Part shown: positions 6,479 through 25,869 of the stretch, piece by piece
How positions within the stretch are numbered: position 1 is the first letter of the stretch
Layout of the letters: every line of letters begins with the position of its first letter
Translations under genes and position numbers: made by a program
The notes under the pieces: generated by a model
What the model saw: only the letters and a program-made list of their open reading frames with translations
Database searches by the model: none
Told to the model about the DNA's origin: nothing
DNA from: an uncultured virus (IMG/VR IMGVR_UViG_3300042509_001805)
Taxonomy: Duplodnaviria > Heunggongvirae > Uroviricota > Caudoviricetes
Strand: one strand, 5' to 3'
IMG/VR virus record: IMGVR_UViG_3300042509_001805
Span: 1-64,000 of that record
Length of the DNA stretch: 64,000 bases

Positions 6479-6517
6479 CCGATAAGTATAATAAGAACAC
6501 ACACAAAGGAAAAAAAC

Positions 6518-6718: not shown

Positions 6719-6772
6719 TAATTTTACAATAATTATAAATACAACACACACACACACACAAGGAAACGAAAA

Positions 6773-6907
6773 ATGAAAATTTACATTGCAATCGAAGCGG
6801 ATAAGGGTCTTGGGCAAACCATGATTCGAGCTTTTTATAACAAAGAAGAAGCTGAAAAATTCGCAAAAGAAAATCGTTATTGGATTGAAGAAGTTGAATT
6901 GTCGTAA
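6773..6907 (+). CDS. small hypothetical protein (44 aa)
   Basis: MKIYIAIEADKGLGQTMIRAFYNKEEAEKFAKENRYWIEEVELS after a (CA)n-AAGGA leader. Confidence 0.7.
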   Translation: MKIYIAIEADKGLGQTMIRAFYNKEEAEKFAKENRYWIEEVELS

Positions 6908-6920
6908 CGAAAGGAAAATT

Positions 6921-7100
6921 ATGTTCGACCGTTTTGCCGTTGCCGTTTTTTTAATGGATTATCATAGTGGCCAGTGGAGCCGAGGCTATCGCATTCTATC
7001 CAAAATGCGGCCCGAAAATTTCTCCTCTGATTTCTGTGAAGAAATGCGGAACACCGAATATTACGCTCACCTAGTTGCAAATTATGAAAACGAAGTATAA
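6921..7100 (+). CDS. hypothetical protein
   Basis: ATG after AAGGA RBS. Confidence 0.7.
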   Translation: MFDRFAVAVFLMDYHSGQWSRGYRILSKMRPENFSSDFCEEMRNTEYYAHLVANYENEV

Positions 7101-7112
7101 GGAAAAATTATA

Positions 7113-7439
7113 ATGTTTACACGCGCCCAATATCTTGCCGGTGAATGTTCGCACCAAGAATATTACGGTCAATTTGTTAATCAGTGGATTCTTACTTGCG
7201 TAAAGGGAAAATATGGAGTTAATCGATTAATTGAAGCTGAAAAGCTTGATATTAATTTTAACACTATCCCATTGTATTCATGGGACCAACTGAATATAAT
7301 GTCGGCAGTTGACCAAGAACTTTGGGCTGCTGCTAATGGTTCACGATATTACAGCCTATCTGATAATCTTTGCATCCAAAAACAAGCTGCTCGAATGATT
7401 GTAGAAAAATATCATAGTGAACAAAACGCCACTGTCTGA
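7113..7439 (+). CDS. hypothetical protein
   Basis: AAGGA RBS; 108 aa. Confidence 0.7.
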   Translation: MFTRAQYLAGECSHQEYYGQFVNQWILTCVKGKYGVNRLIEAEKLDINFNTIPLYSWDQLNIMSAVDQELWAAANGSRYYSLSDNLCIQKQAARMIVEKYHSEQNATV

Positions 7440-7471
7440 CCCTATGTAAACAGACTGCGCAAAACAACCGC

Positions 7472-7553
7472 CCTAAGTGCTAGAGCCACAAGGACTTAGG
7501 TCAACGCGGGCCGCCGCCGTAAGTCGCAAGTCCTAGAGCCGCAAGGGTTTACG
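7472..7553. repeat. 29-bp palindromic site, copies 3 (7472-7500) and 4 (7525-7553)
   Basis: cctaagtgct-agagccaca-aggacttagg and cgcaagtcct-agagccgca-agggtttacg; extra half-site cgtaagt at 7518. Confidence 0.9.
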
Positions 7554-7566
7554 TCAATTCTCTAGA

Positions 7567-7581
7567 GCAATCGTCATGCCA
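7567..7581 (-). promoter_or_regulatory. sigma54-type -24/-12 motif
   Basis: Minus strand TGGCATGACGATTGC (GG-N10-GC). Confidence 0.6.
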
Positions 7582-7732
7582 ATCGGCAAGTGAACAAAGA
7601 TTGTACATGCCAATGAGCAGAATCTATGCAGCCAATGAGCAGTTTCTGTACACCCAGCAACGCTGCTTAAATTTTAGGCACGAAAACCGCGTGTTTTGAG
7701 CAGGAAAAAAATTCTGTGCTTAATTTTTGACT

Positions 7733-7747
7733 TGGCACGGGATTCGC
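7733..7747 (+). promoter_or_regulatory. sigma54-type -24/-12 motif
   Basis: TGGCACGGGATTCGC (GG-N10-GC). Confidence 0.5.
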
Positions 7748-7879
7748 TCTATATAGTGGTATGGAAAGTAAAAATCAAAAACAGAAACTTGCTGGGGAAA
7801 GAAAAGTTTCTGCTAAAGATTTAGCTTGACAATGACGATAAATATGGTATAATAGAGTAATAAGAATTAAGGAAAAAAA

Positions 7880-8080
7880 ATGAAAATTCTAAAAAGTAAA
7901 ATCACAAAATTTGGTGCAAAAGTTAACCTAGTCGATGGTGGCGAAGGTACAAAACAATTCTTTGCACTGTCAAAACGTTATTGGATTTCTTATGGTGAAT
8001 CTGCAAGTCCTCAAAATAATTGCAGAAATCGCTCAGATAATCTGAAATATATCGAAAAAAAGTTTCAAGAAATTATCTAA
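7880..8080 (+). CDS. hypothetical protein
   Basis: Promoter 7826 and RBS. Confidence 0.7.
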   Translation: MKILKSKITKFGAKVNLVDGGEGTKQFFALSKRYWISYGESASPQNNCRNRSDNLKYIEKKFQEII

Positions 8081-8142
8081 AGCTCTTGACAACATCTTGT
8101 CGATACTGTATAATAGAATCACACAACACAAAGGAAACGAAA

Positions 8143-8280
8143 ATGATTATCAACGGTTTTAAATTTTATGTTCGTCAACACGATACCGCCGACAAGTATT
8201 ATGTCGCGATGAAGGGCGATGTGGTTCTCACTTCAAAAAGTTTGGATTATCTTGTGAAAAAAGTCAAGAAACACGCTTGA
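8143..8280 (+). CDS. small hypothetical protein
   Basis: Promoter 8086, AAGGA RBS, start re-assigned. Confidence 0.7.
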   Translation: MIINGFKFYVRQHDTADKYYVAMKGDVVLTSKSLDYLVKKVKKHA

Positions 8281-8334
8281 CAACGCCGATAATTACTGTA
8301 TAATAACAACACACAACACAACAAAGGAAAAAAT

Positions 8335-8541
8335 ATGATTGAAAAATTTGATTACAATAGTTATGAAATCGCGACGTTTGTATATGACGGCGACCGCGAA
8401 CGTTTGAAGGAATTGTGGATTGATGTCAACGGCGAATTTATTGGGGCGATTCGATTTCGCTCGATGAAACCATCGCAAGAACAAATCGAACAATACGTTG
8501 ACGAATATCTTTCAGAAATGGCATTGGGATACGAAATATGA
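8335..8541 (+). CDS. small protein, family B
   Basis: LWIDVNGEFIG similar to WYIDANGERVG in 5265. Confidence 0.75.
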   Translation: MIEKFDYNSYEIATFVYDGDRERLKELWIDVNGEFIGAIRFRSMKPSQEQIEQYVDEYLSEMALGYEI

Positions 8542-8711
8542 AAAACGAAATTGAAAGCCTGGAAAGTATGTCGTATGATGAACTACTTCAGGCGGCTATT
8601 GCTCTGCTTGAAAATGCGGTCGAATTACGGGCCGAATTGGATAAAATCAGGGGCATCATCAGATGAACAACTAGTGTACAAGTGTACAGTGGCCGGGCGG
8701 GCCGCAATCGA

Positions 8712-8740
8712 CGTAAGTCCTAGAGCCACAAGGGTTTACG
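8712..8740. repeat. 29-bp palindromic site, copy 5
   Basis: cgtaagtcct-agagccaca-agggtttacg. Confidence 0.95.
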
Positions 8741-8831
8741 TCAACAAAAAAATTTTCCAGAAAATTTCCAGAATTGGGCTCAAGACTCTTGACAAATCCA
8801 GCCGATAGTGTATAATAGAGGCATAAGGAAA

Positions 8832-9002
8832 ATGAAAATGAAAAACGAAATGACAATCACCGAAACCAAAACCAACAAGTCCCTAACCGGTTCTTTTTTC
8901 AAAGTTTACATTAACGGCCAACTGGTGGCAACTCGCACAACCCGCGAAGCCGCTGAAGAAGCTGGAAAAAAAATTCTGGAAAAAAAGGTCTACCGCTCTT
9001 GA
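8832..9002 (+). CDS. small protein, family A
   Basis: FKVYINGQLVATRTTREAAEEAGKKILEKKVYRS, paralog of 5038. Confidence 0.8.
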   Translation: MKMKNEMTITETKTNKSLTGSFFKVYINGQLVATRTTREAAEEAGKKILEKKVYRS

Positions 9003-9069
9003 CAATGGCTGTCGGTTTGGTATAATCAGAGCATAAGTTAATCACACAAACACAAAAGGAAAAAACACA

Positions 9070-9420
9070 ATGAACACTCAACAAGCTATCCGCGAATTTC
9101 AAGCCGCTATCGAATCCGTTATCGAAATCCCAAACAGTTGGTTGCCAACTGAATTGCATGATGACGTTCGTGGTGGTCGCACAATCGAACGTCTCAACGA
9201 ACTACTCGACGAACGCGATGGTATCACCGAACATCGCAAGCTCAAAGCTCTCAAAGCTCGCAACATCGAAAAGTATGCCGCTACAGTTGCAGCCGGTCAA
9301 GAAATTGATTACAATATTGGCGAACGCGACGAATTGCAACTCTATCGTAATGAATGTGCAATGATTGAAGGAATGATTCACGCTGGTCATATCGACCGCG
9401 ACGATTTGGAAGTAGAATAA
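9070..9420 (+). CDS. hypothetical protein
   Basis: Promoter 8999 and RBS. Confidence 0.75.
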   Translation: MNTQQAIREFQAAIESVIEIPNSWLPTELHDDVRGGRTIERLNELLDERDGITEHRKLKALKARNIEKYAATVAAGQEIDYNIGERDELQLYRNECAMIEGMIHAGHIDRDDLEVE

Positions 9421-9617
9421 TGAACAGTAAAAAAATTGCAAAACGGCTTGAAGCAATGGGCTATAAGTTAACCCGCCGATTGAATTATTGGATTGTAAGT
9501 TGTGAGGAATTACCTTGGGATTGGGTATTTACTAACTTAAAAGAAGTTGAGCGTTGGACTCATATCGAAGAAACTGTTGGCGATAGATTTTGCTATCCCG
9601 AACCAGACGAGTGCTAA
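9420..9617 (+). CDS. hypothetical protein
   Basis: Translationally coupled to the previous ORF. Confidence 0.65.
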   Translation: MNSKKIAKRLEAMGYKLTRRLNYWIVSCEELPWDWVFTNLKEVERWTHIEETVGDRFCYPEPDEC

Positions 9618-9772
9618 TGAAATTTTTTAAATCGTTTTTTATAATATTGTGGATGGTTGGGTTTTTGTATTGTAGTATAATGGCTGTTACTTTTCTAATT
9701 CTGGATTTTATAAAATGGTTTTGAACACGCTATAGTGTACAACTGTACAGGTCGGCGGGCGGCCCGGCGAGC

Positions 9773-9801
9773 CGTAAGTCCTAGAGCCTCAAGGGTTTAC
9801 G
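9773..9801. repeat. 29-bp palindromic site, copy 6
   Basis: cgtaagtcct-agagcctca-agggtttacg. Confidence 0.95.
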
Positions 9802-9813
9802 TCTGTCAAGTAG

Positions 9814-9828
9814 GCAAAACCCATGCCA
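9814..9828 (-). promoter_or_regulatory. sigma54-type -24/-12 motif
   Basis: Minus strand TGGCATGGGTTTTGC. Confidence 0.6.
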
Positions 9829-9929
9829 CACAAAAAAGATTTTTTTTCTTATTTTTCTCTCAAGTATCTTGACAACTAGTGCCGATACTGTATAATGAGG
9901 AAGTCAATCACACACACAAGGAAAAAGTC

Positions 9930-10694
9930 ATGCTGAAATTCTCACCTGCTAACGTCAAGATTAAAGCCCTTAAACTCGTCGCCGCACTTGCCAAGTATTT
10001 GCCACGCGGTCGCCGTGTTTATAGTTTCGACTTGCTATCCGGTCATACTTGCCCATTCGCGAAATTATGCCGCAGTAAAGTAAAAATAATCGACGGCAAG
10101 CGTAAAATCTTTGATGGTCCGCATACTCAATTCCGCTGCTTTTCGGCAAGTCAAGAAGCGACATATACAAACGTTTATGAGCTACGCAAACACAATACGG
10201 AAATTCTGACCGCGATGAAAGACAACCAAGAAATTTTTGATATGTTAAATTCTTCTCTGCCCAAAAATGCTGGAGTTGTTCGCATTCACGTTGCGGGAGA
10301 CTTTTTCAATCAAGATTATTTCGACGCTTGGGTGATGGTTGCGATGAACAATCCGAACGTTCTATTTTACGCTTATACAAAAAGCCTGCGTTATTGGGTC
10401 AGCCGCATTGCAGTTATTCCCGCGAATATGATTCTGACCGCAAGCGAAGGCGGAAGCGAAGATAATTTAATTCAAGAATATAATTTGCGGAAAGCTGTCG
10501 TTGTTTACAACGAACAATCAGCCGCTGAACTCGGATTGGAAATTGACCACACCGACGAACATGCCGCCAACCCAGAAACGGCAAACCACGATTTTGCTCT
10601 TCTCATTCACGGTATTCAGCCAGCAGGCAGCGAAGCAGCCGCAGCGATTCGCGAATTGAAAAGGAACGGAGTTGAATTTGCTTATTCACGATAA
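9930..10694 (+). CDS. GP88-family phage protein
   Basis: F.L.SG.TCP.A..C, RIHVAGDFF, FYAYTKS motifs. Confidence 0.75.
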   Translation: MLKFSPANVKIKALKLVAALAKYLPRGRRVYSFDLLSGHTCPFAKLCRSKVKIIDGKRKIFDGPHTQFRCFSASQEATYTNVYELRKHNTEILTAMKDNQEIFDMLNSSLPKNAGVVRIHVAGDFFNQDYFDAWVMVAMNNPNVLFYAYTKSLRYWVSRIAVIPANMILTASEGGSEDNLIQEYNLRKAVVVYNEQSAAELGLEIDHTDEHAANPETANHDFALLIHGIQPAGSEAAAAIRELKRNGVEFAYSR

Positions 10695-10757
10695 GGGGTA
10701 AAACGTGATTTATATTTTGATTGTAGTTATATCGACAATTTTATTTTTAGCACTATC

Positions 10758-11045
10758 ATGGAAAAATTCAGAATGAAAAGTTTGGTTATATTTTCTTACA
10801 AGCAGCCAGTGGATGGTTCGGTTATTCGTTGGGGAATTTTAGAACGCGAACGCGATACTAAAAAAGAACCTTTATCAATCAATTCTTTATGCGGACCTTA
10901 TAGAAAACGCGATGCTAACTTTGAAAGGTCGCAACATCTTGACACTATAAAAACTCGCAACGGAATAAAAACATTTTATCGCGAGCGACAAAATTGGAAA
11001 ATCAAAATTCCATTTGTTGGAAGTATAGTATCGCGATTCGTATAG
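10758..11045 (+). CDS. hypothetical protein
   Basis: ORF in operon. Confidence 0.55.
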   Translation: MEKFRMKSLVIFSYKQPVDGSVIRWGILERERDTKKEPLSINSLCGPYRKRDANFERSQHLDTIKTRNGIKTFYRERQNWKIKIPFVGSIVSRFV

Positions 11046-11082
11046 TGTACACGCGTACAGGGCGCGGGCCGTCCCGCCGCGT

Positions 11083-11111
11083 CGTAAGTCCTAGAGCCAC
11101 AAGCACTTACG
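11083..11111. repeat. 29-bp palindromic site, copy 7
   Basis: cgtaagtcct-agagccaca-agcacttacg. Confidence 0.95.
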
Positions 11112-11123
11112 TCAGTCAAGTAG

Positions 11124-11138
11124 GCAAAGCGTGTGCCA
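11124..11138 (-). promoter_or_regulatory. sigma54-type -24/-12 motif
   Basis: Minus strand TGGCACACGCTTTGC. Confidence 0.65.
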
Positions 11139-11246
11139 GTGAAAAAAAATAAATTTCAAGAATCTTTTTTTATTTTGCTTCAGACTCTTGACAAACCTAG
11201 CCGATATTGTATAATAAGGAAGTCAATCACACAAGCGAGAAAAAAA

Positions 11247-11489
11247 ATGTACAAAGTAGAAATTGCCACTGTTTACGGCCCCTTTTGTGGTCAAGGCGGT
11301 TATGGTACTGAAACCTGCATCGGTTTCGACCGTAGCGTTAAGCGGGCTTTTGCCAAGGCTCGCGGCCAAGGCAGTCACCGCTACGACCGTAGCCAGATTG
11401 TAACCGGCTCGCGTGGTGGCGGCGTTCCCGTTCTGGGTATGGTTCGGATTTCTCACAACGGAAAAATTATTTCCGAAATTTGGGATTGA
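11247..11489 (+). CDS. hypothetical protein
   Basis: Promoter 11188; start re-assigned. Confidence 0.7.
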   Translation: MYKVEIATVYGPFCGQGGYGTETCIGFDRSVKRAFAKARGQGSHRYDRSQIVTGSRGGGVPVLGMVRISHNGKIISEIWD

Positions 11490-11555
11490 CCCCTTGACAG
11501 TTGTTTTTTCTTTGGTATAATCAGCGTATCAGTCACACACTTTGGAGAATTGAAA

Positions 11556-11747
11556 ATGGACAGCTTCAGCACCAACCAACATTCCGACGAATTGGACTAT
11601 CAACCCACCGCTGCCGATTGGAACGAATACCAAGAGTGGTATGACGGCCAAGAGGCTTGCTACCCAGAGGGTGATGACCTCCTCGACAGCGACCCCATCG
11701 ACCTTTACGGTGGCGATGACTCGCACTACTGGCAATACGACGAATAG
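11556..11747 (+). CDS. small acidic protein, family C
   Basis: MDSF...DE....P...DW.E.Q.W.D shared with 5887. Confidence 0.75.
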   Translation: MDSFSTNQHSDELDYQPTAADWNEYQEWYDGQEACYPEGDDLLDSDPIDLYGGDDSHYWQYDE

Positions 11748-11938
11748 GGCTTGACCCGCAAATCCCGCCCAAGTCGCGGGTATGGTATGGGGTCCATTCA
11801 AAAACCCCCTATATTCGGGAAAAGAGGTAGGCGAATTAACGTCAAGGATTTGAGAAGCCTTAGCGGTTCTGTCTTCAGCGGAAAACGGCCTCGAAGTACC
11901 ATATTTCATTTTGACAGGTGAACACCTGTACACATAGT

Positions 11939-12041
11939 GTCTATGCTAAACAAAACCGATTTACTTTTTTTTCTTTGGCCGAAATTTAAGGTAGTCTTAC
12001 TCAAACTAATCTGAATTGCCCCAGCATTTGGGCCAAAGTTT
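11939..12041. repeat. ~48-bp repeat family B, tandem pair
   Basis: GTCT..AAAC..GA(T/A)TT..GGCC.AA(A/G)TTT at 11939-11987 and 11994-12041. Confidence 0.75.
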
Positions 12042-12057
12042 GCCCGGCCCGCGCCGC

Positions 12058-12086
12058 CCTAAGTCCTAGAGCCCCAAGGAGTTACA
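12058..12086. repeat. 29-bp palindromic site, copy 8
   Basis: cctaagtcct-agagcccca-aggagttaca. Confidence 0.9.
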
Positions 12087-12130
12087 ACGATTGAAAAAAA
12101 ACTTTTTTTCTGCTAAAGTTCCTTGACATT

Positions 12131-12184
12131 GTGTGCCGATATAGTATAATAGAGAAAGTGTGCCGATATAGTATAATAGAGAAA
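12131..12184. repeat. perfect 27-bp tandem duplication within a promoter
   Basis: gtgtgccgatatagtataatagagaaa x2. Confidence 0.95.
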
Positions 12185-12197
12185 AAAGAGAAACGAA

Positions 12198-12485
12198 ATG
12201 AAAGTTGAAGTAACGCCCGCAAAGCCTGATTTCCAGCCCGTCACCCTGAGTATCACCATTGAGTCGTTTGCCGAACTCGCTGTGCTTTTTGCTCGATTCA
12301 ATTGCCCAGTTGCGATTATTAAACAACATGGCTTTGGTGATGGCCCAATGAACACCAGACTCGCAAGAGCAGCAGATTTTAGCATCGAAGATATCGATGA
12401 AGGCGGCAGAATTTTCGACCATATTTCAGACATAGCTAGAGGTTATTATTACGCGATGTATAATGTGGGAAAAGGAGAACGATAA
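12198..12485 (+). CDS. hypothetical protein
   Basis: Downstream of promoter 12123. Confidence 0.7.
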   Translation: MKVEVTPAKPDFQPVTLSITIESFAELAVLFARFNCPVAIIKQHGFGDGPMNTRLARAADFSIEDIDEGGRIFDHISDIARGYYYAMYNVGKGER

Positions 12486-12691
12486 TGCTACAAATGACTA
12501 AGAATGAAATTATTTGCGAAATTTTGGAACAAACAACGCCCGATGAGCTAATGTTCGACCTTGAAAATACCGATATTGAATGGTATACTGACTTGGTGTG
12601 CGATGTTGTGTTTATGCGTACTGTAAGATATCAAGATGTTTGCGACGCTTTAGTGTGGTTTGCTTCACAAGAATTGGAGGCTTTAAATTAG
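12485..12691 (+). CDS. hypothetical acidic protein
   Basis: AAGGAG RBS. Confidence 0.7.
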   Translation: MLQMTKNEIICEILEQTTPDELMFDLENTDIEWYTDLVCDVVFMRTVRYQDVCDALVWFASQELEALN

Positions 12692-12873
12692 ACAAAGACT
12701 TTTATTTTGGGCAGGAACAATTACTGTTTGGTGTTGTTTTATTTTACTCATGAGCTTAATTTTAGTGGGGATATACAACGGCTAAAAAATTTCTTAAGTT
12801 TTGACTTGACATAGACGATAAGTATGTTAGAATGATATTGTAAATGATGTTTCACTTTTTTGGAGAATGTGCT

Positions 12874-13077
12874 ATGATGGTTGATTTGTACGGCAAGCGT
12901 AACGAGCGTAAGGTTTCTTTCCTGTATCCTGTTGGTGGCAAGAAGAATGTTCTTCGGGCCGTAAATGGTGTAAAGGTTCGCAGTTATACTGGACCGAATG
13001 GGCGTGGTATTACCGTCCGCGAAGACAGCGGAATCATGAAGTCCTTTTCGGTCAGCAAGTGCGTAGCTGGTCTTTAA
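12874..13077 (+). CDS. hypothetical protein
   Basis: Promoter 12806, GGAG RBS. Confidence 0.7.
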   Translation: MMVDLYGKRNERKVSFLYPVGGKKNVLRAVNGVKVRSYTGPNGRGITVREDSGIMKSFSVSKCVAGL

Positions 13078-13093
13078 TTGCTACGCTTGCAAC

Positions 13094-13330
13094 GGCGACG
13101 GTCAGCAGACAATCGCTAAGGTGCGGAACAAACCAACAAAATCCGCACGACTCGATTGGGCGAGTATAAATAGGATGATAGGCCCAATGCGGCGGCATTT
13201 GCCGCGAATCGGCATTAAAGTTTAGCCCTCCTGTCGTCAGACGGCAGCAAACTAAACGAGCTAGCGTGTCGCCCCAACAGTTCTTCGCCGTTCTGCTGCT
13301 GGTGGATAAAACGAACGGCGAGCTTTTTCT
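13094..13330 (+). ncRNA. candidate multi-stem structured RNA followed by a terminator
   Basis: Nested stems ggcgac/gtcgcc, cgcta/tagcg, gtgcgga/tccgcac, ttgggc/gcccaa, gtttag/ctaaac, ctgtcgtc/gacggcag; then tcgccgttc/gaacggcga plus T-run. Confidence 0.5.
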
Positions 13331-13345
13331 TTTAGGAAATGAAAC

Positions 13346-13528
13346 GTGAAACTGATTGTATTGGATTTTCTCATCGGCATATGTCATATCTTTACCGTAA
13401 CTAAGGAGTTATGCGAAAGCGAAGATAATATCGTTGATTTCCTAATGGAAAAAGATTTTAATCTTGACAACATTCAGTATATGTATGGCGACATACCGAT
13501 AATAGGCGACATGAAAGTTGTGTTGTAA
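13346..13528 (+). CDS. hypothetical protein
   Basis: ORF with AGGA RBS. Confidence 0.55.
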   Translation: MKLIVLDFLIGICHIFTVTKELCESEDNIVDFLMEKDFNLDNIQYMYGDIPIIGDMKVVL

Positions 13529-13715
13529 TGCAACTACTTGACAAACTCTTGCGATATGCTAAAATGATTCGTGAAGACCGTGCCACTGTTTGTTTGTGGT
13601 GCGGTAGACATTTAGTACTGCTTTGGGACGTACTTTTTTGGAGTAGCATTGCGGCTGGCGGTTGGCTGTTTGGTTACTTGATTTGTATTACGTTTAACAT
13701 TGGGAGTTTTGCGCA

Positions 13716-13961
13716 GTGAAAACTTTTCTTGAATTTAGCGGATGGATAGAGCTTGACGAAAAAACACAAATGTGTTATTATGGAAACGGCGACCCAAAAA
13801 GAATAACGCTAAAGGAATGGCAACAGCTTCCTAGGCAAGAGCAAAGTAATTATTGGATAGAACAAGAAGATTTTGACGTACTGTACCGCTATGGCGTAGA
13901 TAGTGATTTTTTTGATTGGCGTTTAGTTTTGGGAGAAAAATATGACGAAGAAGCTGTTTAG
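13716..13961 (+). CDS. hypothetical protein
   Basis: GGGAG RBS, GTG start. Confidence 0.55.
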   Translation: MKTFLEFSGWIELDEKTQMCYYGNGDPKRITLKEWQQLPRQEQSNYWIEQEDFDVLYRYGVDSDFFDWRLVLGEKYDEEAV

Positions 13962-14132
13962 TTTGGGGCAAACTTTTGTTGTGAATGGTGTCGAATGGAC
14001 TGGCCGCGAGTATCGACTTGATGCCGCGTTTGAAGGATGGACGATTGTTGCCGTAAACGGCAGTAATCAAGTGGCACAATTTAGTCTTGCAGACGTTGAA
14101 AAAGCACTGGGGGTATGATATACTAGCGGTAT

Positions 14133-14201
14133 GGGCCAGCCGCTGGTTGCGGACTTGACTCTTATAAGGTCGATGATGGGATTCGATTTCCTGCTGGCCT
14201 A
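14133..14201 (+). tRNA. atypical tRNA-Ile(UAU)-like
   Basis: Acceptor GGGCCAG/CTGGCCT-A, anticodon loop CTTATAA, T-loop TTCGATT, minimal D-arm CCGC-TGGTT-GCGG. Confidence 0.55.
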
Positions 14202-14251
14202 TTTGACTTTAGCAAAATGCATGGTAGAATGATTGAAAAGGAGAACGTAAC

Positions 14252-14521
14252 GTGGCTAAACGCAAAAAGAAACTTCCGGTTGCGAGTGGTGAAATGTTGG
14301 ATTTTGTGGTGACTTTAGAGCGTCCCGAAACTGGTACAATTGTGCGGTATATCGAGCAGTTCAGCCCGTTTAATCCCGCGACTGGACAGCTATATACTCA
14401 TCGAGAGTTTAGCGAACAACTTTTGCCATACGTCCGAGAAGTTGGCAAGAGTTTTGAAAATTGGAATATGTTTGTTGTTCTTGCCACAAACGAAGAAATC
14501 GAAGAACTAAAGAGTATATAA
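14252..14521 (+). CDS. hypothetical protein
   Basis: Promoter 14203, AAGGAG RBS. Confidence 0.7.
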   Translation: MAKRKKKLPVASGEMLDFVVTLERPETGTIVRYIEQFSPFNPATGQLYTHREFSEQLLPYVREVGKSFENWNMFVVLATNEEIEELKSI

Positions 14522-14618
14522 TGGGCATACTTATTGGGCTAGTTCTTGCATTTATTTTTGTGCAGAAAATATACCATCTCAACGGAAACCGCTAGGTCGG
14601 CGGGCCGACCCGCCGCGT

Positions 14619-14647
14619 CGTAAGTCCTTGTGGCCCTAGCACTTACG
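14619..14647. repeat. 29-bp palindromic site, copy 9 (core inverted)
   Basis: cgtaagtcct-tgtggccct-agcacttacg. Confidence 0.95.
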
Positions 14648-14730
14648 TCAACAAAAAAATTTCTTAATTTTTTCTCAAGTCGGTTGACATTCTGTGTCGA
14701 TAATGTATAATAGGAAGCAAGGAGAACGCA

Positions 14731-14976
14731 ATGTATAAAAATTTTACGATTGAAATTAACTGCTGGCGATGCCACGAACCATACCGCGTCAAGCCTAACT
14801 GTGAAGGTTTTCTTCAGTGGATTAGGGGAGAAGCTTTGATTCAGGACGCAATGCCAGAACTTACTGCTGACCAACGCGAACTGATTATGAGTGGAACTTG
14901 CGACCGCTGTTGGAACGCTATGTTTCCATACAACGAAATTCTCTCGGCTGAAGTTCTTGACAAGGACGGTCGATAA
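14731..14976 (+). CDS. small putative Zn-binding protein
   Basis: CxxC...CxxC; promoter 14684. Confidence 0.7.
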   Translation: MYKNFTIEINCWRCHEPYRVKPNCEGFLQWIRGEALIQDAMPELTADQRELIMSGTCDRCWNAMFPYNEILSAEVLDKDGR

Positions 14977-15024
14977 TGTATACTAAGGAAGTAAGTTAAA
15001 GTCACACATTTTGGAGATTGAATT

Positions 15025-15423
15025 ATGGGTTTGGACCAGTATGCTTTCGCACGTAAGGGTGAACCTGAAAAGTATATCGATAAAAATTGGCTTGGCAAGG
15101 ACCAAGAATTTATTCGCTATCCAGAAAAAAACGAAATCGCCTATTGGCGAAAGCACCCCAATTTGCAAGGTTGGATGGAAAATCTATACCGCGAAAAGGG
15201 TGGTGACGCTGAATCTTTCAACTGCGTTGATGTTGAATTGACGCTCGAAGATTTGAACCGTTTAGAGCGTGATATTAATAAAGGTGCTTTACCAAGCACG
15301 ACCGGCTTTTTCTTTGGTTCAGATTCCGACGAATACTACAAAGAACAAGACGAGAAATTTATCGACGCGGCTCGCGATTCAATTATTAACGGTTACACTG
15401 TTGTTTATAATTCGTGGTGGTAA
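15025..15423 (+). CDS. conserved phage hypothetical protein
   Basis: MGLDQY...YWRKHPNLQGWM...YNSWW pattern seen in many phages. Confidence 0.75.
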   Translation: MGLDQYAFARKGEPEKYIDKNWLGKDQEFIRYPEKNEIAYWRKHPNLQGWMENLYREKGGDAESFNCVDVELTLEDLNRLERDINKGALPSTTGFFFGSDSDEYYKEQDEKFIDAARDSIINGYTVVYNSWW

Positions 15424-15454
15424 CTAACGTTAAAGAAATAACAAGGAGAAAGTT

Positions 15455-15763
15455 ATGAGCAAATACTTTACAGCAGCAGAAGCAAAGAAATTGGCCGGAA
15501 AATCAGTTGAAGAAAAAGTTGAGCTTTTGTGTGAATCAATCAAGAAAAACGCCAGCGAACGTAAACGTTCATTAATAACTGGTTGGGAGCACAAAGAAGA
15601 CCGAGATTTGTGGATTGATGGTGGATACAGCCGAACAGAAGATTGGGAAAAAGCAAAAAAGATTCTTGAGGCACTTGGTTATAAAGTTACATTTTATTGT
15701 CAAGAGCCCCCATCCGTGTGGGCAATCCCAATCGTTGCTATGTATACCATAATTGAGTGGTAA
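15455..15763 (+). CDS. hypothetical protein
   Basis: AAGGAG RBS. Confidence 0.7.
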   Translation: MSKYFTAAEAKKLAGKSVEEKVELLCESIKKNASERKRSLITGWEHKEDRDLWIDGGYSRTEDWEKAKKILEALGYKVTFYCQEPPSVWAIPIVAMYTIIEW

Positions 15764-15791
15764 CTGACAAACTGCTTCAAAGGAACGTAAC

Positions 15792-15980
15792 GTGAAAATT
15801 TGGTGTGTAGCGTGTTTTTACGAAGTCCAGCGTGATGCCCATTGGCGTTTGGAACTCAGCAATATTTATTTGTTTAGTTCTGCTCAACTGGCAAATAAGT
15901 TTGTTAGGAGTAATTATTACCAAAAAATGAACTACGACGCATTTGAAACTTATGAATCAGAGGTTGACAATGCGGTTTAG
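15792..15980 (+). CDS. hypothetical protein
   Basis: AAGGA RBS, GTG start. Confidence 0.6.
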   Translation: MKIWCVACFYEVQRDAHWRLELSNIYLFSSAQLANKFVRSNYYQKMNYDAFETYESEVDNAV

Positions 15981-16125
15981 TGTGGTATACTTGCGTTATG
16001 AAGATTAAAATCAACAAAGTGGCAACGGGTCACAATCCGCCAGTATTTCGCTGCGGCAAGTGGCAGGATAAGCGTAAACGGCGTGAGCGTACTCGCGCAG
16101 CACAAAGATTAAAGTGGAGTCGGGA

Positions 16126-16386
16126 ATGAGCGTAAAGACTCTTGTTCGTTGTCGCGGATTTACTGAAATTTTTAGCGATAACAAATACACATATATTTAT
16201 CACAATGGTAATATGGGTGACACAGAAAGTCATATTCGCAAAAATTTTGATAGTATGTATTTTGATGGAGCGTACAACAGGCTTGAAAGGCAAGCAAATG
16301 TTATTAAAGATGGCTCGCCTGATTACAGTTTTGTTTTACGTGTTCCTACAAATGTATTTAACGCTTTGATAAAGGAGAACGAATGA
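16126..16386 (+). CDS. hypothetical protein
   Basis: GGAG RBS. Confidence 0.6.
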   Translation: MSVKTLVRCRGFTEIFSDNKYTYIYHNGNMGDTESHIRKNFDSMYFDGAYNRLERQANVIKDGSPDYSFVLRVPTNVFNALIKENE

Positions 16387-16751
16387 TTAAGATTAAAGGT
16401 TTGCCGGAAGGCTATGACATTGTGAGGATTGGCAGGCCAGAGGCTTGCGAATTATTTATAGGTGGCACTGGGATGGTGGAAAGGTCAAGCGGTGATTTGA
16501 TGGCCGCTTGCTACCTCATCGTCCGCAAAATCGAGCGGCCAAAGCAATACAGGCCGTTTGCCAGTGCTGAGGAGTTTAAGCCGCATCGGGATAGGTGGAC
16601 AAGGCGAATCGCATACGACCCACAAGGAAATGATATTTACCCGCCAACACGATACAGCGATTTAGGTTATCACGGGTTCAAATGGCAATGGTGCTTTGAG
16701 AACTTTTCATTTGACGATGGTACCCCATTTGGCGTGGAGGTGAGTGAATGA
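16383..16751 (+). CDS. hypothetical protein, paralog of 39729-40097
   Basis: Shared G.P.GY..VRIGRP, RKIE.PK.YRPFA, PFGVE. Confidence 0.75.
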   Translation: MIKIKGLPEGYDIVRIGRPEACELFIGGTGMVERSSGDLMAACYLIVRKIERPKQYRPFASAEEFKPHRDRWTRRIAYDPQGNDIYPPTRYSDLGYHGFKWQWCFENFSFDDGTPFGVEVSE

Positions 16752-16890
16752 AGGTCTTTGTTGTAATTTGTTTTAAGGTAATTGGCCGCGAACATATTTT
16801 TGTAAATGCCGCCGTTTTCAAAAACTCAAATGACGCATCTACGTTTGGTGCAAATTATGACGATTCAATAGTAATCGAAAGGACTGTATC

Positions 16891-17313
16891 TTGAACGCCA
16901 AAGTTTATATTTACTGGAATTTACATAAGCGTTGTTTCAGTGCAAAACGAAACGGCAAAGTTTTCGCCCACTTCCGAAATGCCAGCATTTTGAATCCTGA
17001 GTTTCGAGTGAGTGCTGCTGGATGCCGCCGTGTTCGTCGCGATGGTCGCAAAAATGTTCATGCCAACATTGTATGCGAATTGGAGAATTTTACAATTCAT
17101 TCAGACAGCAGAATCGCCCCTGTTAGTGACGCTACTGCTGAGTATGCTTACTATAATCCGTATCTTTACGAAACTTTTGTTGACAACGAAGGTGATGCAT
17201 TGTATAATGCACAAAGTGCCGAGTTAACCACTTATGAGCATATGCTCAATTACTATAAAAATTTGAAAGAAAGACAACCCATTATTTACATTACGAAAGA
17301 AGCAAATGACTAA
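16891..17313 (+). CDS. conserved phage hypothetical protein
   Basis: VY.YWNLHK..FS...RV...GRKNVHA...YNPY pattern. Confidence 0.7.
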   Translation: MNAKVYIYWNLHKRCFSAKRNGKVFAHFRNASILNPEFRVSAAGCRRVRRDGRKNVHANIVCELENFTIHSDSRIAPVSDATAEYAYYNPYLYETFVDNEGDALYNAQSAELTTYEHMLNYYKNLKERQPIIYITKEAND

Positions 17314-17500
17314 CGACATTGCAAAAAGATTAGAAAACGACATTGCAAAAAGATTAGAAAAACTCCAAGATGACTTGAACCATCTGGCCGAGAAACTCTC
17401 TGGAGAAGGTCCATCTAGCTATACCGAACGAAAAGAGCGAGCAAAAGAACGACAAGCTTTTGTTAGTGAAATAGAAAGAATGCAAAATGAAAGTGAATAA
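17306..17500 (+). CDS. hypothetical protein with duplicated NDIAKRLE
   Basis: Tandem 24-nt duplication in frame. Confidence 0.6.
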   Translation: MTNDIAKRLENDIAKRLEKLQDDLNHLAEKLSGEGPSSYTERKERAKERQAFVSEIERMQNESE

Positions 17501-17696
17501 GCACAACCGCGACCTAATTATTGCCGAATATATCGACCGTACCATCGATGGAATGGATATTAAAGGACTTATTGAATATGTTCGTGGCGGAATAGAAGCC
17601 GACCTTAAACATTATTCCGATACAGAATTGGAATATGAAATTCTTGACCAATACGATGATTTTCCTTGGTACGATTTTGATTATGCAGATGAATAA
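17487..17696 (+). CDS. hypothetical acidic protein
   Basis: Overlapping coupled ORF. Confidence 0.6.
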   Translation: MKVNKHNRDLIIAEYIDRTIDGMDIKGLIEYVRGGIEADLKHYSDTELEYEILDQYDDFPWYDFDYADE

Positions 17697-17768
17697 AGTA
17701 TAAGGTTTTGGCGGCCCTGTTGGTAGTTTTGTTATTGAATATAAGGAACCTTCATTAGAGAATAAATA

Positions 17769-17978
17769 ATGACCGAAAACCCACTACAACTAGCAACTAA
17801 AAATTGGATAGAAGCAGTCCAGAAGTATTATGAGAATACTCGTAGTAATGAATTGACCCAAATTCATATGAGGGGTTATTTCAGCGGTTGGAGCGAACGC
17901 GAGATTCTGGAATTTGCGAATAAATTGGCTAAAAATGAACAGGACTATCCTTTGTATAGAGAGAACGAGAATAAATAG
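17769..17978 (+). CDS. hypothetical protein
   Basis: ORF ending just before repeat copy 10. Confidence 0.6.
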   Translation: MTENPLQLATKNWIEAVQKYYENTRSNELTQIHMRGYFSGWSEREILEFANKLAKNEQDYPLYRENENK

Positions 17979-17993
17979 GCCCGCCCGCCGAGC

Positions 17994-18022
17994 CCTAAGT
18001 CCTTGTGCCGCTAGGACTTACG
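17994..18022. repeat. 29-bp palindromic site, copy 10 (core inverted)
   Basis: cctaagtcct-tgtgccgct-aggacttacg. Confidence 0.95.
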
Positions 18023-18035
18023 TCAATCAAGCAAA

Positions 18036-18050
18036 GCAACTTTTGTGCCA
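18036..18050 (-). promoter_or_regulatory. sigma54-type -24/-12 motif
   Basis: Minus strand TGGCACAAAAGTTGC. Confidence 0.65.
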
Positions 18051-18202
18051 TTCCCGCTCGGGAAAATTCTAGGCAAACCGCAAAAGTTATTCCCGCTCGG
18101 GACAGAAAACTTTTTTCTTTTTTTTCTCTCAAGCCACTTGACCTTCGCGGTCGATAAAGTATAATGAGAGAGTAAGTCACACACAATGTTTAGGAGTTAG
18201 TT

Positions 18203-19054
18203 ATGCCTCGCCGTGTTGTTAGTTGTCAGTTGCCGCCCGTCAAAACGTGCAAGAATACCAATTGTGCTAGTGTTGCTATTAGCTACGATGGTTTCTGCAA
18301 GTCGCACGCTCCAAGTCGTCGCATTAAGAGCTATAATTCGCGTCCGCGATGTAGTTCACGATGGGCGAATCCTATCGGTATCGAACTCGAAATGATTCAT
18401 CCAGAATCCGCAAGCCGTTTGGCACAAGTTGCCCGCTTTGCATGTACCGATGCCAGTTTACCCTATGGTGGTGCGGAAATCAAGCTGGTGCAAGATGCCA
18501 GTAAGATTACCAATATCGCCGCCGATACTGCTCAACGTGCTGGCCTTGCTGGTGCAAAGGTTAATCGTAGCTGCGGTTTTCATGTTCATATGGGATTGCC
18601 CAATGGTGTCAGCGTTGGATTAGAGCGTCGAAGCGATGCGAACTGGTCAAGCTGTAACGCCCGTTATCGTTTGTGGGCATTGGCAACAAACTTTCAAGAA
18701 TACTTTTTTGATATTGTTCCCAAAACTCGCCGCACGAACCACTATTGCTCGCCGTTGACAAGCGTAACCAATAGTTTACATTCTCACTATGCTTGGCTAT
18801 CTGTTTCGCACCGTGTTCCTACGGTCGAACTACGGATTCATAGCGGAACGGTCAATCCGTGGAAAGTCAAAGGTTGGGTCGAAGTCGCTGTGCGTTTGCG
18901 TGAAATGGTAAACGCCGCGATTCTCGGAACCCAAGGTTGGGATAATCTTCCTAGCAAGAAGTTTGTAGATTATATGGAACCGGGAACACTTGGTTCCAAG
19001 TATTTGCTCGCTCGCGAATGTGCTGGTGGCAAACTGGTAAATTTTGGATTCTAA
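18203..19054 (+). CDS. putative amidoligase (COOH-NH2 ligase, Amidoligase_2-like)
   Basis: IGIELE, DASL..GGAE, VNRSCGFHVH, TVELRIHSGT. Confidence 0.8.
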   Translation: MPRRVVSCQLPPVKTCKNTNCASVAISYDGFCKSHAPSRRIKSYNSRPRCSSRWANPIGIELEMIHPESASRLAQVARFACTDASLPYGGAEIKLVQDASKITNIAADTAQRAGLAGAKVNRSCGFHVHMGLPNGVSVGLERRSDANWSSCNARYRLWALATNFQEYFFDIVPKTRRTNHYCSPLTSVTNSLHSHYAWLSVSHRVPTVELRIHSGTVNPWKVKGWVEVAVRLREMVNAAILGTQGWDNLPSKKFVDYMEPGTLGSKYLLARECAGGKLVNFGF

Positions 19055-19105
19055 TTATCGTTCGATAGAACGTACACACACTCACTTTTTTTGGAGAATT
19101 TTATT

Positions 19106-19972
19106 ATGTGTCGATTGGCTTATATTCCGGGCAACTGCAAAGTAAACCGTACTGATTTGGTGGACCTTTTGCATATGCTGCAAAAGTCGTTTGGTGGCGA
19201 TGGTAACGGATTCGTTGCCGTTGGTCCCAATGGTGAGGAGTTTAGCGAGAAGGGTGTCAAGTTAGACAACGATGCTATCGTTATCAAAACTTGGAAACTT
19301 ATCAAAAAGGGTTGGTCGGTTTACTATCATACTCGCAAGATTAGCGTAGGCTGGAGTAGCGACAAGCAATGCCATCCGCACCGTATCAACGGTGACAAGT
19401 TCAAGGGTTGGCTGTGCCACAATGGAACGTGGAATGATGGAGTACCGCTTGCCAATTATCTTAACTGTGGTAGCGATACCGCTGCTCTTGCTCGATGTAT
19501 CGGCAAGTTTGGTATCGAGGGAGCAGAAAAACGCAATCTGTTTCCCAAGTCGGGCGTGTTTCTTATCTACGGTAGCGAGAATGGCGAATCGCCTATTCAT
19601 CGCGTAGTCAAGAAATCGGGCGACTTGCAATACTGCCCCAAGACTGGTATTTGGGCCAGTGAGTTCGAAAAGGATTGGCCGTACTGGTCGCAGGTTTATA
19701 CCGCAACTGTTGGCAAGCACTTGCTTTGCAAACCAGCCCCACAATATATTTCGCCTGCTCGCGGTAATGGTGGCAAGTTTGTGAGTCGCAAGAATAGCCA
19801 TCCTGATATTATTGATTCAGGAATTCCAGCACCGTGGGACGATGATGACCGAACCGTTGTTGATTCGCGTCGCTCGTTGTCGCAACGATTGTGGCCGCAA
19901 GACCCTACTGAGTACGAACCAGAGCCAGATTGGGAATATCGTGGCGGATACCCACGACGCGATTTGAGTTAG
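19106..19972 (+). CDS. class II glutamine amidotransferase (Ntn hydrolase)
   Basis: Starts MCRL (Cys1); HTR, CHPH, CHNG and SDT motifs. Confidence 0.8.
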   Translation: MCRLAYIPGNCKVNRTDLVDLLHMLQKSFGGDGNGFVAVGPNGEEFSEKGVKLDNDAIVIKTWKLIKKGWSVYYHTRKISVGWSSDKQCHPHRINGDKFKGWLCHNGTWNDGVPLANYLNCGSDTAALARCIGKFGIEGAEKRNLFPKSGVFLIYGSENGESPIHRVVKKSGDLQYCPKTGIWASEFEKDWPYWSQVYTATVGKHLLCKPAPQYISPARGNGGKFVSRKNSHPDIIDSGIPAPWDDDDRTVVDSRRSLSQRLWPQDPTEYEPEPDWEYRGGYPRRDLS

Positions 19973-20024
19973 TGTGTGTGTGTGTTTGTAGGTGAGTTTT
20001 ATCTTTTAACTTTAGGAGTATTTT

Positions 20025-20114
20025 ATGAAGAAGTGTACTGGTTGTGGCCGTCCAATTGAAACTGTTGTTATTCGTCAATGTCCAAAATGCATCAACAATC
20101 GCGCTGGATTATAA
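20025..20114 (+). CDS. 29-aa Zn-finger micropeptide
   Basis: MKKCTGCGRPIETVVIRQCPKCINNRAGL after AGGAG RBS. Confidence 0.6.
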   Translation: MKKCTGCGRPIETVVIRQCPKCINNRAGL

Positions 20115-20205
20115 GTGTGTGTGTGTGTGTGTGATGCCCAACAGCTTGGGGGACGCAAGTCCCCCGGCTGTACGGGTGTACACTACGCGGGCCGCCCCGC
20201 GACGC

Positions 20206-20234
20206 CCTAAGTCCTTGTGGCTCTAAGACTTACG
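20206..20234. repeat. 29-bp palindromic site, copy 11 (core inverted)
   Basis: cctaagtcct-tgtggctct-aagacttacg. Confidence 0.95.
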
Positions 20235-20246
20235 TCAATCCGCTAG

Positions 20247-20261
20247 GCAAACCTCATGCCA
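20247..20261 (-). promoter_or_regulatory. sigma54-type -24/-12 motif
   Basis: Minus strand TGGCATGAGGTTTGC. Confidence 0.65.
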
Positions 20262-20335
20262 AACAAAAACAAAAATCTTTTTTCTTTTTTCCTCAAGATA
20301 CTTGACAAGCAATGCCGATATAGTATAATAAGGAA

Positions 20336-20463
20336 GTGAGCAGTGGCCTGACAAGCAGGTACGACTCTCGACAGTTAAGGACCGGGAAGCTCCGGGCTGA
20401 ACCGTTTCGTAGCGGTTACTGTTGATTGCTGCTGTTGGCGGTGTTCGATTCCCGCCGCTCACA
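20336..20463 (+). ncRNA. tRNA-like RNA with expanded body and its own promoter
   Basis: GTGAGC/GCTCAC-A terminal stem, T-arm GGCGG-TGTTCGATTC-CCGCC, internal hairpins; promoter 20302 and no ORF. Confidence 0.6.
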
Positions 20464-20552
20464 TTTTTTAAAAATTCCGCTTGACATTCGTTGAGCGTAA
20501 CGTATAATTCAAGAGTAACAAGTTCAGTTTTTTTTCACGAAGGGTTTTTACC

Positions 20553-21473
20553 ATGTCTACTGTTTCCCGTTCTAATGTTTCTGCCAACGAAATCTCGGCT
20601 CGCGTTGCCGCTGCTTTCAACTTCACTGTTGACAAGTTCCCGCTTGCTGGCCCAGATGGTCTTCGCACTCCGTGGTACGGTATGTTCCGCTCTGACAACA
20701 ACGAAGTTGTTGGTAACGGTTCTGTAACCTCGCGGTACTGTCCACACCAAACCGAAGACGTTCTCGCACTGGTGGATGCCGCCAGCGAAGCGTTTGAAGG
20801 TGTGGCGAGTGTTGACACCTACTTCCGCGATGGGCATTATGTCGCCATCGAACCAACTCGCGAACAACGTTATGCGATTTTCGGCACTGCCGACAACATC
20901 TTTCCGCGTGTCGTGATTCGTGCGGGTTACGATGGCAAGGCGTTCAACGCCGCGATGGGTTATTACCGCGATGCTTGCCGCAATCTGGCAATCATGCGAC
21001 AAGTTAGCGGAACCACCGTTTCCATCCGCCACACTAGCGGACTGCGAAGCCGCATGGATTCGCTGATTCAAAGCTTTACGAGTCTTCGCGATTCGTGGCA
21101 AATGCTGGCCGCAACTGCGGTTCAGCTTGAATCAACTCGCGTGAATCTTGCGGACTTCCTTCGCGAAGTTTACGGCGAACCCGAAACCGACAGCGGTCGT
21201 GCTGCGACTATCCATCGCAATCGTACCGAAACGATTTTCAATCGTGTGATGGATGAACGTAGCCGCACTGGTCGCGGTGCTATGCCAGCCGATTTCCGCG
21301 TCAGCGGTTGGGAAGCGTTCAACGCTGTGCAGGGATTCGTTCAGCATGAATCAACTCGCAAGAGTTCGGCTCGCGGTGCTGCCGCAACCGGATTTGGTCG
21401 AATCATCGCCGCCGCTAACGATGCTGCGGTTCAACGTGCCGAACGTGCTGCGATGAATCTGCTCGCGGTTTAA
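20553..21473 (+). CDS. DUF932-like phage/plasmid protein
   Basis: G.FRSD....VG..V..RY.P.Q, R..C.N, IRHT and W.AFNAV patterns. Confidence 0.65.
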   Translation: MSTVSRSNVSANEISARVAAAFNFTVDKFPLAGPDGLRTPWYGMFRSDNNEVVGNGSVTSRYCPHQTEDVLALVDAASEAFEGVASVDTYFRDGHYVAIEPTREQRYAIFGTADNIFPRVVIRAGYDGKAFNAAMGYYRDACRNLAIMRQVSGTTVSIRHTSGLRSRMDSLIQSFTSLRDSWQMLAATAVQLESTRVNLADFLREVYGEPETDSGRAATIHRNRTETIFNRVMDERSRTGRGAMPADFRVSGWEAFNAVQGFVQHESTRKSSARGAAATGFGRIIAAANDAAVQRAERAAMNLLAV

Positions 21474-21499
21474 TCTTTCGTGTGTTTCCTTTCGTGTGA

Positions 21500-25859: not shown

Positions 25860-25869
25860 TGGTTTTATG

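Follow-up and report, generated by a model that had tools for sequence, protein, structure and literature searches.

The stretch of DNA analyzed here (the window, 64,000 nucleotides) is the first 64 kb of the 77.5-kb IMG/VR record IMGVR_UViG_3300042509_001805 (G000), from an uncultured virus, and its early region contains five motifs of the type read by sigma-54 (RpoN), each placed beside a hairpin in a repeated intergenic cassette and facing backward relative to the early genes. In every base, the window equals positions 21,855-85,854 of G001, a complete record of 148,313 bp with terminal repeats. The source sample is lake water, and the 24 listed runs that contain the stretch are all DNA runs, with no RNA run among them. 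A tape measure protein of 2919 aa (PHROGs) points to a siphovirus-like phage, and no T4 core structural protein was matched in PHROGs among 49 scanned proteins, picked from 78 open reading frames (ORFs) of at least 180 aa. The early region, at about 4.1-21.7 kb, is made up of small plus-strand ORFs, and a scan of positions 4000-22500 returned 19 plus-strand promoters that agree with TTGACA-N16/17-TATAAT at 12 of 12 positions. Many of the intergenic gaps in this region repeat one composite cassette, in which a GTGTAC-N4-GTACAC dyad, a G+C-rich mini-hairpin with a CCGN loop, a 29-nt palindrome, the letters TCAA, an A/T-rich stretch and a sigma-70 promoter follow each other in this order. The sigma-54-type motif belongs to an optional module of about 27 bp between the 29-nt hairpin and the A/T-rich UP region with its promoter.

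The 29-nt palindrome, CGTAAGTCC-N11-GGACTTACG, has 9-bp arms and an 11-nt loop and is present in 12 copies in the window (family D7). Five of these 12 copies are accompanied by the motif; at the others, an A run comes directly after TCAA. A search with GCAA-N5-RTGCCA (pattern GCAANNNNNRTGCCA), which on the minus strand reads TGGCAY-N5-TTGC, returned exactly five matches in the window, and they are the same five to which the first-pass annotation, made from the letters of this DNA, had drawn attention. All matches to the pattern are on the plus strand, so that the sigma-54 reading lies on the minus strand. Shuffled windows gave a mean of 0.38 matches and a maximum of 3, with none of 100 shuffles reaching five, and both G000 and the complete G001 hold the same five strict matches and no others. 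Scored against the sigma-54 consensus, which agrees with the site lists in PMC4591121, the five sites match at 10-11 of 11 positions, in line with the RpoN consensus named in the first-pass annotation: all five are top-grade -24/-12 matches. The ATGCCA half-site occurs 13 times in 4000-22000 relative to 5.0 expected, a count to which the sites themselves contribute and in which coding bias is possible.

The geometry of the five sites is equally constant. The motif had been described as beginning 13-14 bp beyond the palindrome end, and the measured linker is 12-13 nt. With the C of the GC counted as -12, the predicted +1 is a minus-strand purine that lies 1-2 nt outside the stem at each of the five sites, and the recomputed starts are identical to those that had been proposed for the palindrome edge (Table 1). 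The gap from the motif to the -35 element of the next plus-strand sigma-70 promoter is 40, 49, 40, 87 and 244 bp for sites 2, 3, 5, 4 and 1, so that a further claim, of sites beside a sigma-70 promoter, holds well for sites 2, 3 and 5 and less well for site 4, while site 1 is far from its promoter. Since the distance to the hairpin is constant while the distance to the promoter ranges from 40 to 244 bp, the motif is tied to the hairpin, not to the promoter. What stands out is thus the strict core in combination with a constant position and a constant strand.

Table 1. Positions in the window of the sigma-54-type sites and of the cassette elements around them.
Feature	Position	Strand	Remarks
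Sigma-54-type site 1, TGGCATGACGATTGC	7567-7581	-	linker 13 nt; predicted +1 at 7555
Sigma-54-type site 2, TGGCATGGGTTTTGC	9814-9828	-	linker 12 nt; predicted +1 at 9802
Sigma-54-type site 3, TGGCACACGCTTTGC	11124-11138	-	linker 12 nt; predicted +1 at 11112
Sigma-54-type site 4, TGGCACAAAAGTTGC	18036-18050	-	linker 13 nt; predicted +1 at 18024; kept in the orthologous cassettes of G012 and L241
Sigma-54-type site 5, TGGCATGAGGTTTGC	20247-20261	-	linker 12 nt; predicted +1 at 20235; segment absent from the orthologous cassette of G012
Palindrome by site 1	7525-7553		second copy at 7472-7500
Palindrome by site 2	9773-9801		two plus-strand G.U pairs become minus-strand mismatches
Palindrome by site 3	11083-11111		lake metagenome contigs break or branch here
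Palindrome by site 4	17994-18022		loop flipped relative to copies 1-3
Palindrome by site 5	20206-20234		loop flipped; lake metagenome contigs break or branch here
Sigma-70 promoter, site 1 cassette	7826-7853	+	equivalent to that of the site 2 cassette
Sigma-70 promoter, site 2 cassette	9869-9896	+	12/12 consensus; 40 bp right of site 2
Sigma-70 promoter, site 3 cassette	11188-11215	+	equivalent to that of the site 2 cassette
Sigma-70 promoter, site 4 cassette	18138-18165	+	equivalent to that of the site 2 cassette; 11/12
Sigma-70 promoter, site 5 cassette	20302-20329	+	equivalent to that of the site 2 cassette
Dyad GTGTAC-N4-GTACAG	9735-9750		left cassette edge; one of 10 such dyads, 5482-21733
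Palindrome TTCCCGCTCGGGA abutting site 4	18051-18063		second copy at 18090-18102
Sense-strand sigma-54-like site TGGCACGGGATTCGCT	7733-7748	+	10/11; within the spacer of a promoter-like TTGACT-N17-TATATA

Relatives found by protein have 69-120 of the 195 G001 genes in common, and the cassette of site 4 was traced through its neighbouring 283-aa and 293-aa genes. G012, in which the 293-aa gene has 78% aa identity, carries the hairpin followed by 13 nt, GCAAATGCCATGCCA and TTCCCGCTCGGGA; L241, in which the 283-aa gene has 62% aa identity, carries the hairpin followed by 13 nt, GCAAATGTCATGCCA and TTCCCGAACGGGAA twice. Relative to site 4 of the window, G012 matches at 1 of 5 positions of the N5 spacer and 5 of 13 positions of the linker, and the core blocks match in full apart from an allowed purine change. 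At a median of 44% aa identity to G001, G003 still has one cassette in which the hairpin is followed by 13 nt, GCAAATATTGTGCCA, the UP region and the promoter. The GG-N10-GC spacing, which the first-pass annotation had proposed to follow in homologous copies, is thus kept in G012, L241 and G003. Across the eight hairpin-linked copies, both blocks, the 5-nt gap and the 12-13-nt offset are constant in every one while the stretches between them drift: 9-10 core positions are invariant in all eight, and the N5 spacer and the linker have diverged to near-random. This pattern shows purifying selection on both core blocks and on the offset. The orientation is uniform as well: each of the 11 strict sites known from early regions of the clade points against the early genes (five in G001, two in G002 and one each in G012, L241, G003 and L105). 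Among lake strains (contigs of four runs, 7400-20400), the 40 entries listed out of 118 include no difference inside a motif, a result that carries no weight for or against conservation.

The two halves of the motif are asymmetric in every copy (GCAA versus TGCCA), so the motif is not the site of a symmetric dimer. Over ten clade sites, preferences extend to positions outside the search pattern, with G at -20 in seven, a purine at -19 in eight and a pyrimidine at -27 in seven. The left/right asymmetry and the -20 G fit the sigma-54 consensus, and not a symmetric dimer site. E. coli sites bound in chromatin immunoprecipitation sequencing often deviate more, and include TGGCAT and TTGCC variants like those of the phage sites (PMC4591121). 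Two other promoter classes were tried. The minus-strand TTGGCA was rejected as a sigma-70 -35 element, since no -10 element follows in the window copies. The phage also encodes two sigma-70-family (extracytoplasmic function-like) factors, at 3291-3836 on the minus strand (Sigma70_r2) and at 52773-53246 on the plus strand (r2 and r4), which probably serve middle or late transcription; promoters for these two small factors were rejected in turn, given that the 5-nt gap between the blocks is unlike a -35/-10 spacing.

Host sigma-54 and a host activator are proposed because the phage encodes neither: Sigma54_DBD had no match in any of five phage records (E up to 1), and the single PF00158 match of the distant relative G014 was rejected as an activator, being RuvB-like. 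A phylogenetic profile, of low power, found no G001 gene that is present in both G002 and G003, which bear the motif, yet absent from both G004 and G005, which lack it, as a phage-encoded reader might be. In the model that we put forward, the host RpoN holoenzyme would dock at the five backward-facing sites in the early-gene cassettes and would wait there in a closed complex for activation by an enhancer-binding protein of the host. Once activated, it would begin RNA synthesis 1-2 nt outside the stem, and the antisense transcript would cross the hairpin and enter the upstream early gene at its 3' end. Most likely, the early unit upstream would in this way be insulated or shut down on a host signal, be it by conditional antisense or convergent transcription or by a polymerase parked at the site. 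The sequence shows the motif, its place and strand, and the selection on both blocks and the offset; sigma-54 as the reader, the firing of the sites and its effect are inferred from it. To the reading of the five motifs as host sigma-54 holoenzyme sites that act as activator-dependent antisense promoters or as parked complexes we give a probability of about 0.5. The fuller proposal, in which a lake phage clade that probably infects Planctomycetota would silence chosen early genes by host-signal-triggered sigma-54 antisense promoters starting at hairpins, is tentative and on balance doubtful.

The host hint comes from a DUF1559 prepilin gene, whose homologues are mostly from Planctomycetota. 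The protein is encoded at 38153-39190 of the window on the plus strand, carries a prepilin N-terminal methylation motif and scores 168 bits. Homologues at 47 genomic loci divide into 39 from Planctomycetota, which include all full-length ones, six from Verrucomicrobiota, most of which match in the N-terminal part only, one from Acidimicrobiia and one unlabelled. Members also occur in G002 and G006, and none was found in 14 control genomes. Sigma54_DBD (about 205 bits) was found in all five Planctomycetota genomes with a DUF1559 homologue; among the controls it was present in E. coli, B. subtilis, Caulobacter and Bacteroides, and absent from Synechococcus. A host from the PVC group (Planctomycetota or Verrucomicrobiota) is slightly favoured. 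Further searches for a host or for relatives gave the following: positions 22001-42000, compared to 401 Planctomycetota genomes, matched only in the tRNA cluster or the DUF1559 5' end among the matches listed, with no spacer-like match; nucleotide searches of a phage collection with 7000-12500 and 30000-50000 returned no match; tblastn with a GP88-like protein reached Synechococcus phages at about 41% identity, which is of no taxonomic help; and a DNA polymerase fragment had distant matches only.

A number of observations weigh against sigma-54 promoters at these sites. The minus-strand 5' hairpin forms in the minimum-energy fold at sites 3, 4 and 5 and is absent from it at sites 1 and 2, where it fails because plus-strand G.U pairs become A.C mismatches. 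On the minus strand, terminator-like sequences come after sites 1 and 4 only and are weak, and no minus-strand gene lies downstream of any of the sites. The enhancer-binding activator domain PF00158 had no match in G000, G001, G002, G003, G004 or G005, and no upstream activator element common to the five sites was found. When the count is loosened to any GG-N10-GC that agrees with the consensus at 10 or more of 11 positions, G001 holds 10 sites genome-wide relative to 6.0 expected, a weak enrichment. The module is missing from two of four orthologous cassettes (cassette 5 of G012, and L239), and no strict site was found in G004, G005 or G006. In G002, the two perfect sites flank the hairpin on its opposite side, and a sigma-70 promoter, TTGGCA-N16-TATAGT, is an alternative reading of them. 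The host evidence is mixed too: phage GC is 38%, as opposed to 48-69% in the candidate-host loci, and an 879-aa tail-region protein is 70.6% identical to Pam2_66 of the Pseudanabaena cyanophage Pam2. A host that lacks sigma-54 thus stays possible on account of this cyanophage-like tail protein, cyanobacteria being, to our knowledge, without sigma-54.

The tail-region protein and its 146-aa neighbour, which is 58% identical to Pam2_65, lie at 143174-146264 of G001, outside the window, and this segment seems to be a tail-region module that was exchanged recently. Pam2 was rejected as a useful relative, having 6 of 195 genes in common with G001, no hairpin family and none of the cassettes; it holds no TTGAC-N16-18-TAKAAT promoter, and its two strict sigma-54 patterns are at chance level. 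No psbA gene was found in any of the five clade genomes. As to the fold, the small antisense hairpin RNA suggested by the first-pass annotation is weakened by its failure at two of five sites and by the weakness of the terminator-like sites; a discrete RNA of this kind is not supported, and conditional antisense or convergent transcription, or a parked closed complex, is possible. Counts of G.U pairs on the sense versus the antisense side are 54 versus 47 for the clade, and 9 versus 3 for the 12 true copies of G001. As for the variable presence of the module, L239 (92% aa) has a different hairpin together with a GG-N12-GC remnant, and L242-L246 are plain cassettes. Set beside the conservation described above, this means that the module is under selection where it occurs, yet dispensable.

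Several of these points would be expected of an operator at which another DNA-binding protein, of phage or host, controls the neighbouring sigma-70 early promoter or the hairpin, and which resembles a sigma-54 site by coincidence. We consider this reading of the motif unlikely, although it is the strongest of the rival explanations. The lack of a phage activator and of a shared upstream site agrees with it, and so does the use of the slot for other short conserved elements: three G012 cassettes (12468-14400, L233) carry GGACACCTTTGGTC after the hairpin and the GC hairpin, where it replaces the sigma-54 module, the cassettes of G005 hold GACCTAACGTGTC-type repeats, and a TTCCCG-NN-CGGGA(A) palindrome (TTCCCGNNCGGGA) stands twice at site 4. 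The arms of this palindrome are kept, and its central 2 nt vary (CT, TT, AA), among the orthologues in G012 and L241, so that the TTCCCGNNCGGGA pair is a candidate regulator or activator site. The slot may simply hold operators for several proteins, which adds to the evidence against sigma-54. Distant G014 speaks in the same direction. It has 16 near-consensus sites relative to 2.35 expected, in both orientations; among them, at 18948-19085 (L235 2948-3085), are five tandem 27-bp repeats, each with TTGGCGCGAAAATTGCT, which point toward the hairpin that terminates a convergent gene. This array looks more like an operator or iteron array than like promoters and is a further point against the promoter interpretation. 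Two further perfect sites are preceded by a conserved AGACT...AGTCT dyad. Coincidental likeness does not, however, sit easily with the exact sigma-54 core, the conserved asymmetry and the sigma-54-like preferences outside the search pattern. An operator for the sigma-70 promoter would also be placed at 40-244 bp from it and at a fixed distance from the hairpin, and no phage gene co-occurs with the motif in the low-power profile.

A second explanation grants the binding of sigma-54 holoenzyme and denies the firing: the sites would serve as decoys, drawing off more and more of the host enzyme while the phage DNA is replicated, or as fixed roadblocks or insulators that separate the cassettes. That the holoenzyme binds promoters in an inactive state, as stated in PMC4591121, makes this conceivable, and the absence of an activator, of an upstream site and of downstream genes, as well as the tandem arrays of G014, agree with it. 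A pure decoy or roadblock, however, explains neither the fixed 12-13-nt offset nor the uniform orientation, both of which are conserved, and only five sites per genome are present. By the inferred geometry, an incoming polymerase would run into the complex with the hairpin still incompletely transcribed, and hairpin-assisted release would not obviously be helped. Sites that never fire are, on this evidence, improbable. It is most improbable of all that the motif is a functionless passenger, copied with one cassette subtype by duplication and recombination: the cassettes do recombine, hairpins are contig break or branch points in the lake metagenomes and the presence of the module varies among close relatives, yet in all eight hairpin-linked copies 9-10 core positions and the offset have stayed invariant beside a near-random spacer and linker.

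The palindromes themselves are not intrinsic terminators by the terminator scan, which called none of the 12; on the plus strand they continue into TCAA and then an A run, with no T run, and canonical terminators are present elsewhere, for example at 21623-21639. Rfam holds no family for the hairpins. An exact-match scan of IMG/VR with a 14-mer of the hairpin returned 95 stretches, and among the 80 loci examined the full palindrome was found only in five from the identical G001. In lake strains of the four runs, insertions and deletions (indels) of 27, 51 and 272 nt were seen, and contigs break or branch at hairpins. The loop is reverse-complemented (TTGTGGCCCTA-type versus TAGAGCCACAA-type) at 14619-14647, 17994-18022 and 20206-20234 relative to the copies at 5538-12086, and the orientation of the flanks is unchanged; in those three copies the hairpin alone appears to have been flipped. 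At the palindrome copy at 21667, the entire module is inverted.

Other parts of the cassettes carry conserved elements of their own. The 16-bp GTGTAC-N4-GTACAC dyad forms the left edge of most cassettes, with ten matches (e.g., 6129-6144), and looks like an operator for a dimeric regulator. An NtcA site and a cyanobacterial LexA box were both considered for the GTAC dyads and rejected, as spacing or flanks do not suit their consensus sequences. Three GTACA repeats stand beside the promoter at 21752. The heptamer GCCGATA lies inside the 16-17-nt promoter spacer (e.g., 9882-9888) and is conserved across the whole clade, also in G003, G004, G005 and L105; such conservation is unusual for a promoter spacer. 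At 12123-12181, a tandem 27-bp duplication makes a second -10 region, and one lake strain lacks exactly 27 nt (place 12131). Upstream of the sense-strand sigma-54-like site of Table 1, by 90-155 bp, are three GCCAATSRGCAR repeats at 7578, 7609 and 7631, and the layout of 7578-7748 resembles that of a classical activator-dependent promoter.

Further afield, 13150-13211 on the plus strand matches the Pistol ribozyme of Rfam with 47.7 bits, above the gathering score of 34.5. At 27861-28651 and 40536-41138, four paralogous segments (repeat families D12, D15, D16 and D20) indicate a duplicated family of small genes in these two places. A non-coding stretch of G002, some 250 nt long and with many runs of G and of C (L102 1240-1500), follows a perfect sigma-54-like site in the minus-strand direction and may be a structured RNA.

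The sites are a real, conserved feature of repeated PeSL-like cassettes in a non-T4 phage, and parts of the arrangement have counterparts in known systems. The TGGCAY-N5-TTGC core and the GG-N10-GC spacing are those of E. coli sigma-54 sites (Bonocora et al., 2015; PMC4591121), for which the sections covered describe a holoenzyme that can sit inactive and many sites that are antisense or without an obvious target gene. Unlike the E. coli sites, those described here are phage-borne, are predicted from sequence, keep a fixed 12-13-nt offset to a hairpin in a shuffling cassette, and come with no identified activator or upstream site. The PeSL elements of T4-type phages, in the portions of the two reports covered here (Arbiol et al., 2010; PMC2839356; Comeau et al., 2014; PMC4122927), likewise combine a stem-loop with an A/T-rich stretch and a near-perfect sigma-70 promoter, recur between small early ORFs and are linked to indels and gene shuffling, as is paralleled here by orthologous cassettes that differ in the presence of the module. 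The cassettes of the window differ from them in their carrier, which is siphovirus-like and not T4-like, and in the extra GTGTAC-N4-GTACAC dyad, the GC mini-hairpin and the 29-nt palindrome without a T run. The words sigma54, sigma-54, RpoN and antisense have no occurrence in the examined text of the 2010 paper (PMC2839356), and the examined parts of the 2014 paper (PMC4122927) make no mention of a sigma-54 module.

Phages and sigma-54 have met before. The sigma-54-like promoter of Pseudomonas phage YuA is said to trace back to Ceyssens and colleagues in 2008. In the part of a recent study that was covered, it appears as P015 (Putzeys et al., 2024; PMC10914365): YuA is a virulent siphovirus that uses a promoter of the host sigma-54 type alongside sigma-70 promoters, and in this the phage analyzed here may be like it. 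YuA has one sense promoter with measured activity, as opposed to five backward, hairpin-tied predicted sites. In the main text of the phage literature examined, sigma-54 is otherwise met only in the form of phage-encoded sigma-54-type proteins.

Phage early regions are thought to use the host housekeeping sigma factor, and the documented phage use of sigma-54 amounts to little beyond the one YuA promoter. The conserved backward sites suggest a little-studied route for phages into host transcription. If the sigma-54 reading is true, the phage would couple early-gene control to host signalling through enhancer-binding proteins, or would park or capture that polymerase; if antisense silencing in particular is true, it would be a second, host-signal-dependent layer of control of a kind undescribed for phages. 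The hint of a Planctomycetota host is testable, and would bear on a phylum with almost no characterised phages. For the cassettes, the idea of PeSL elements as mobile promoter-terminator units extends beyond the T4-type phages.

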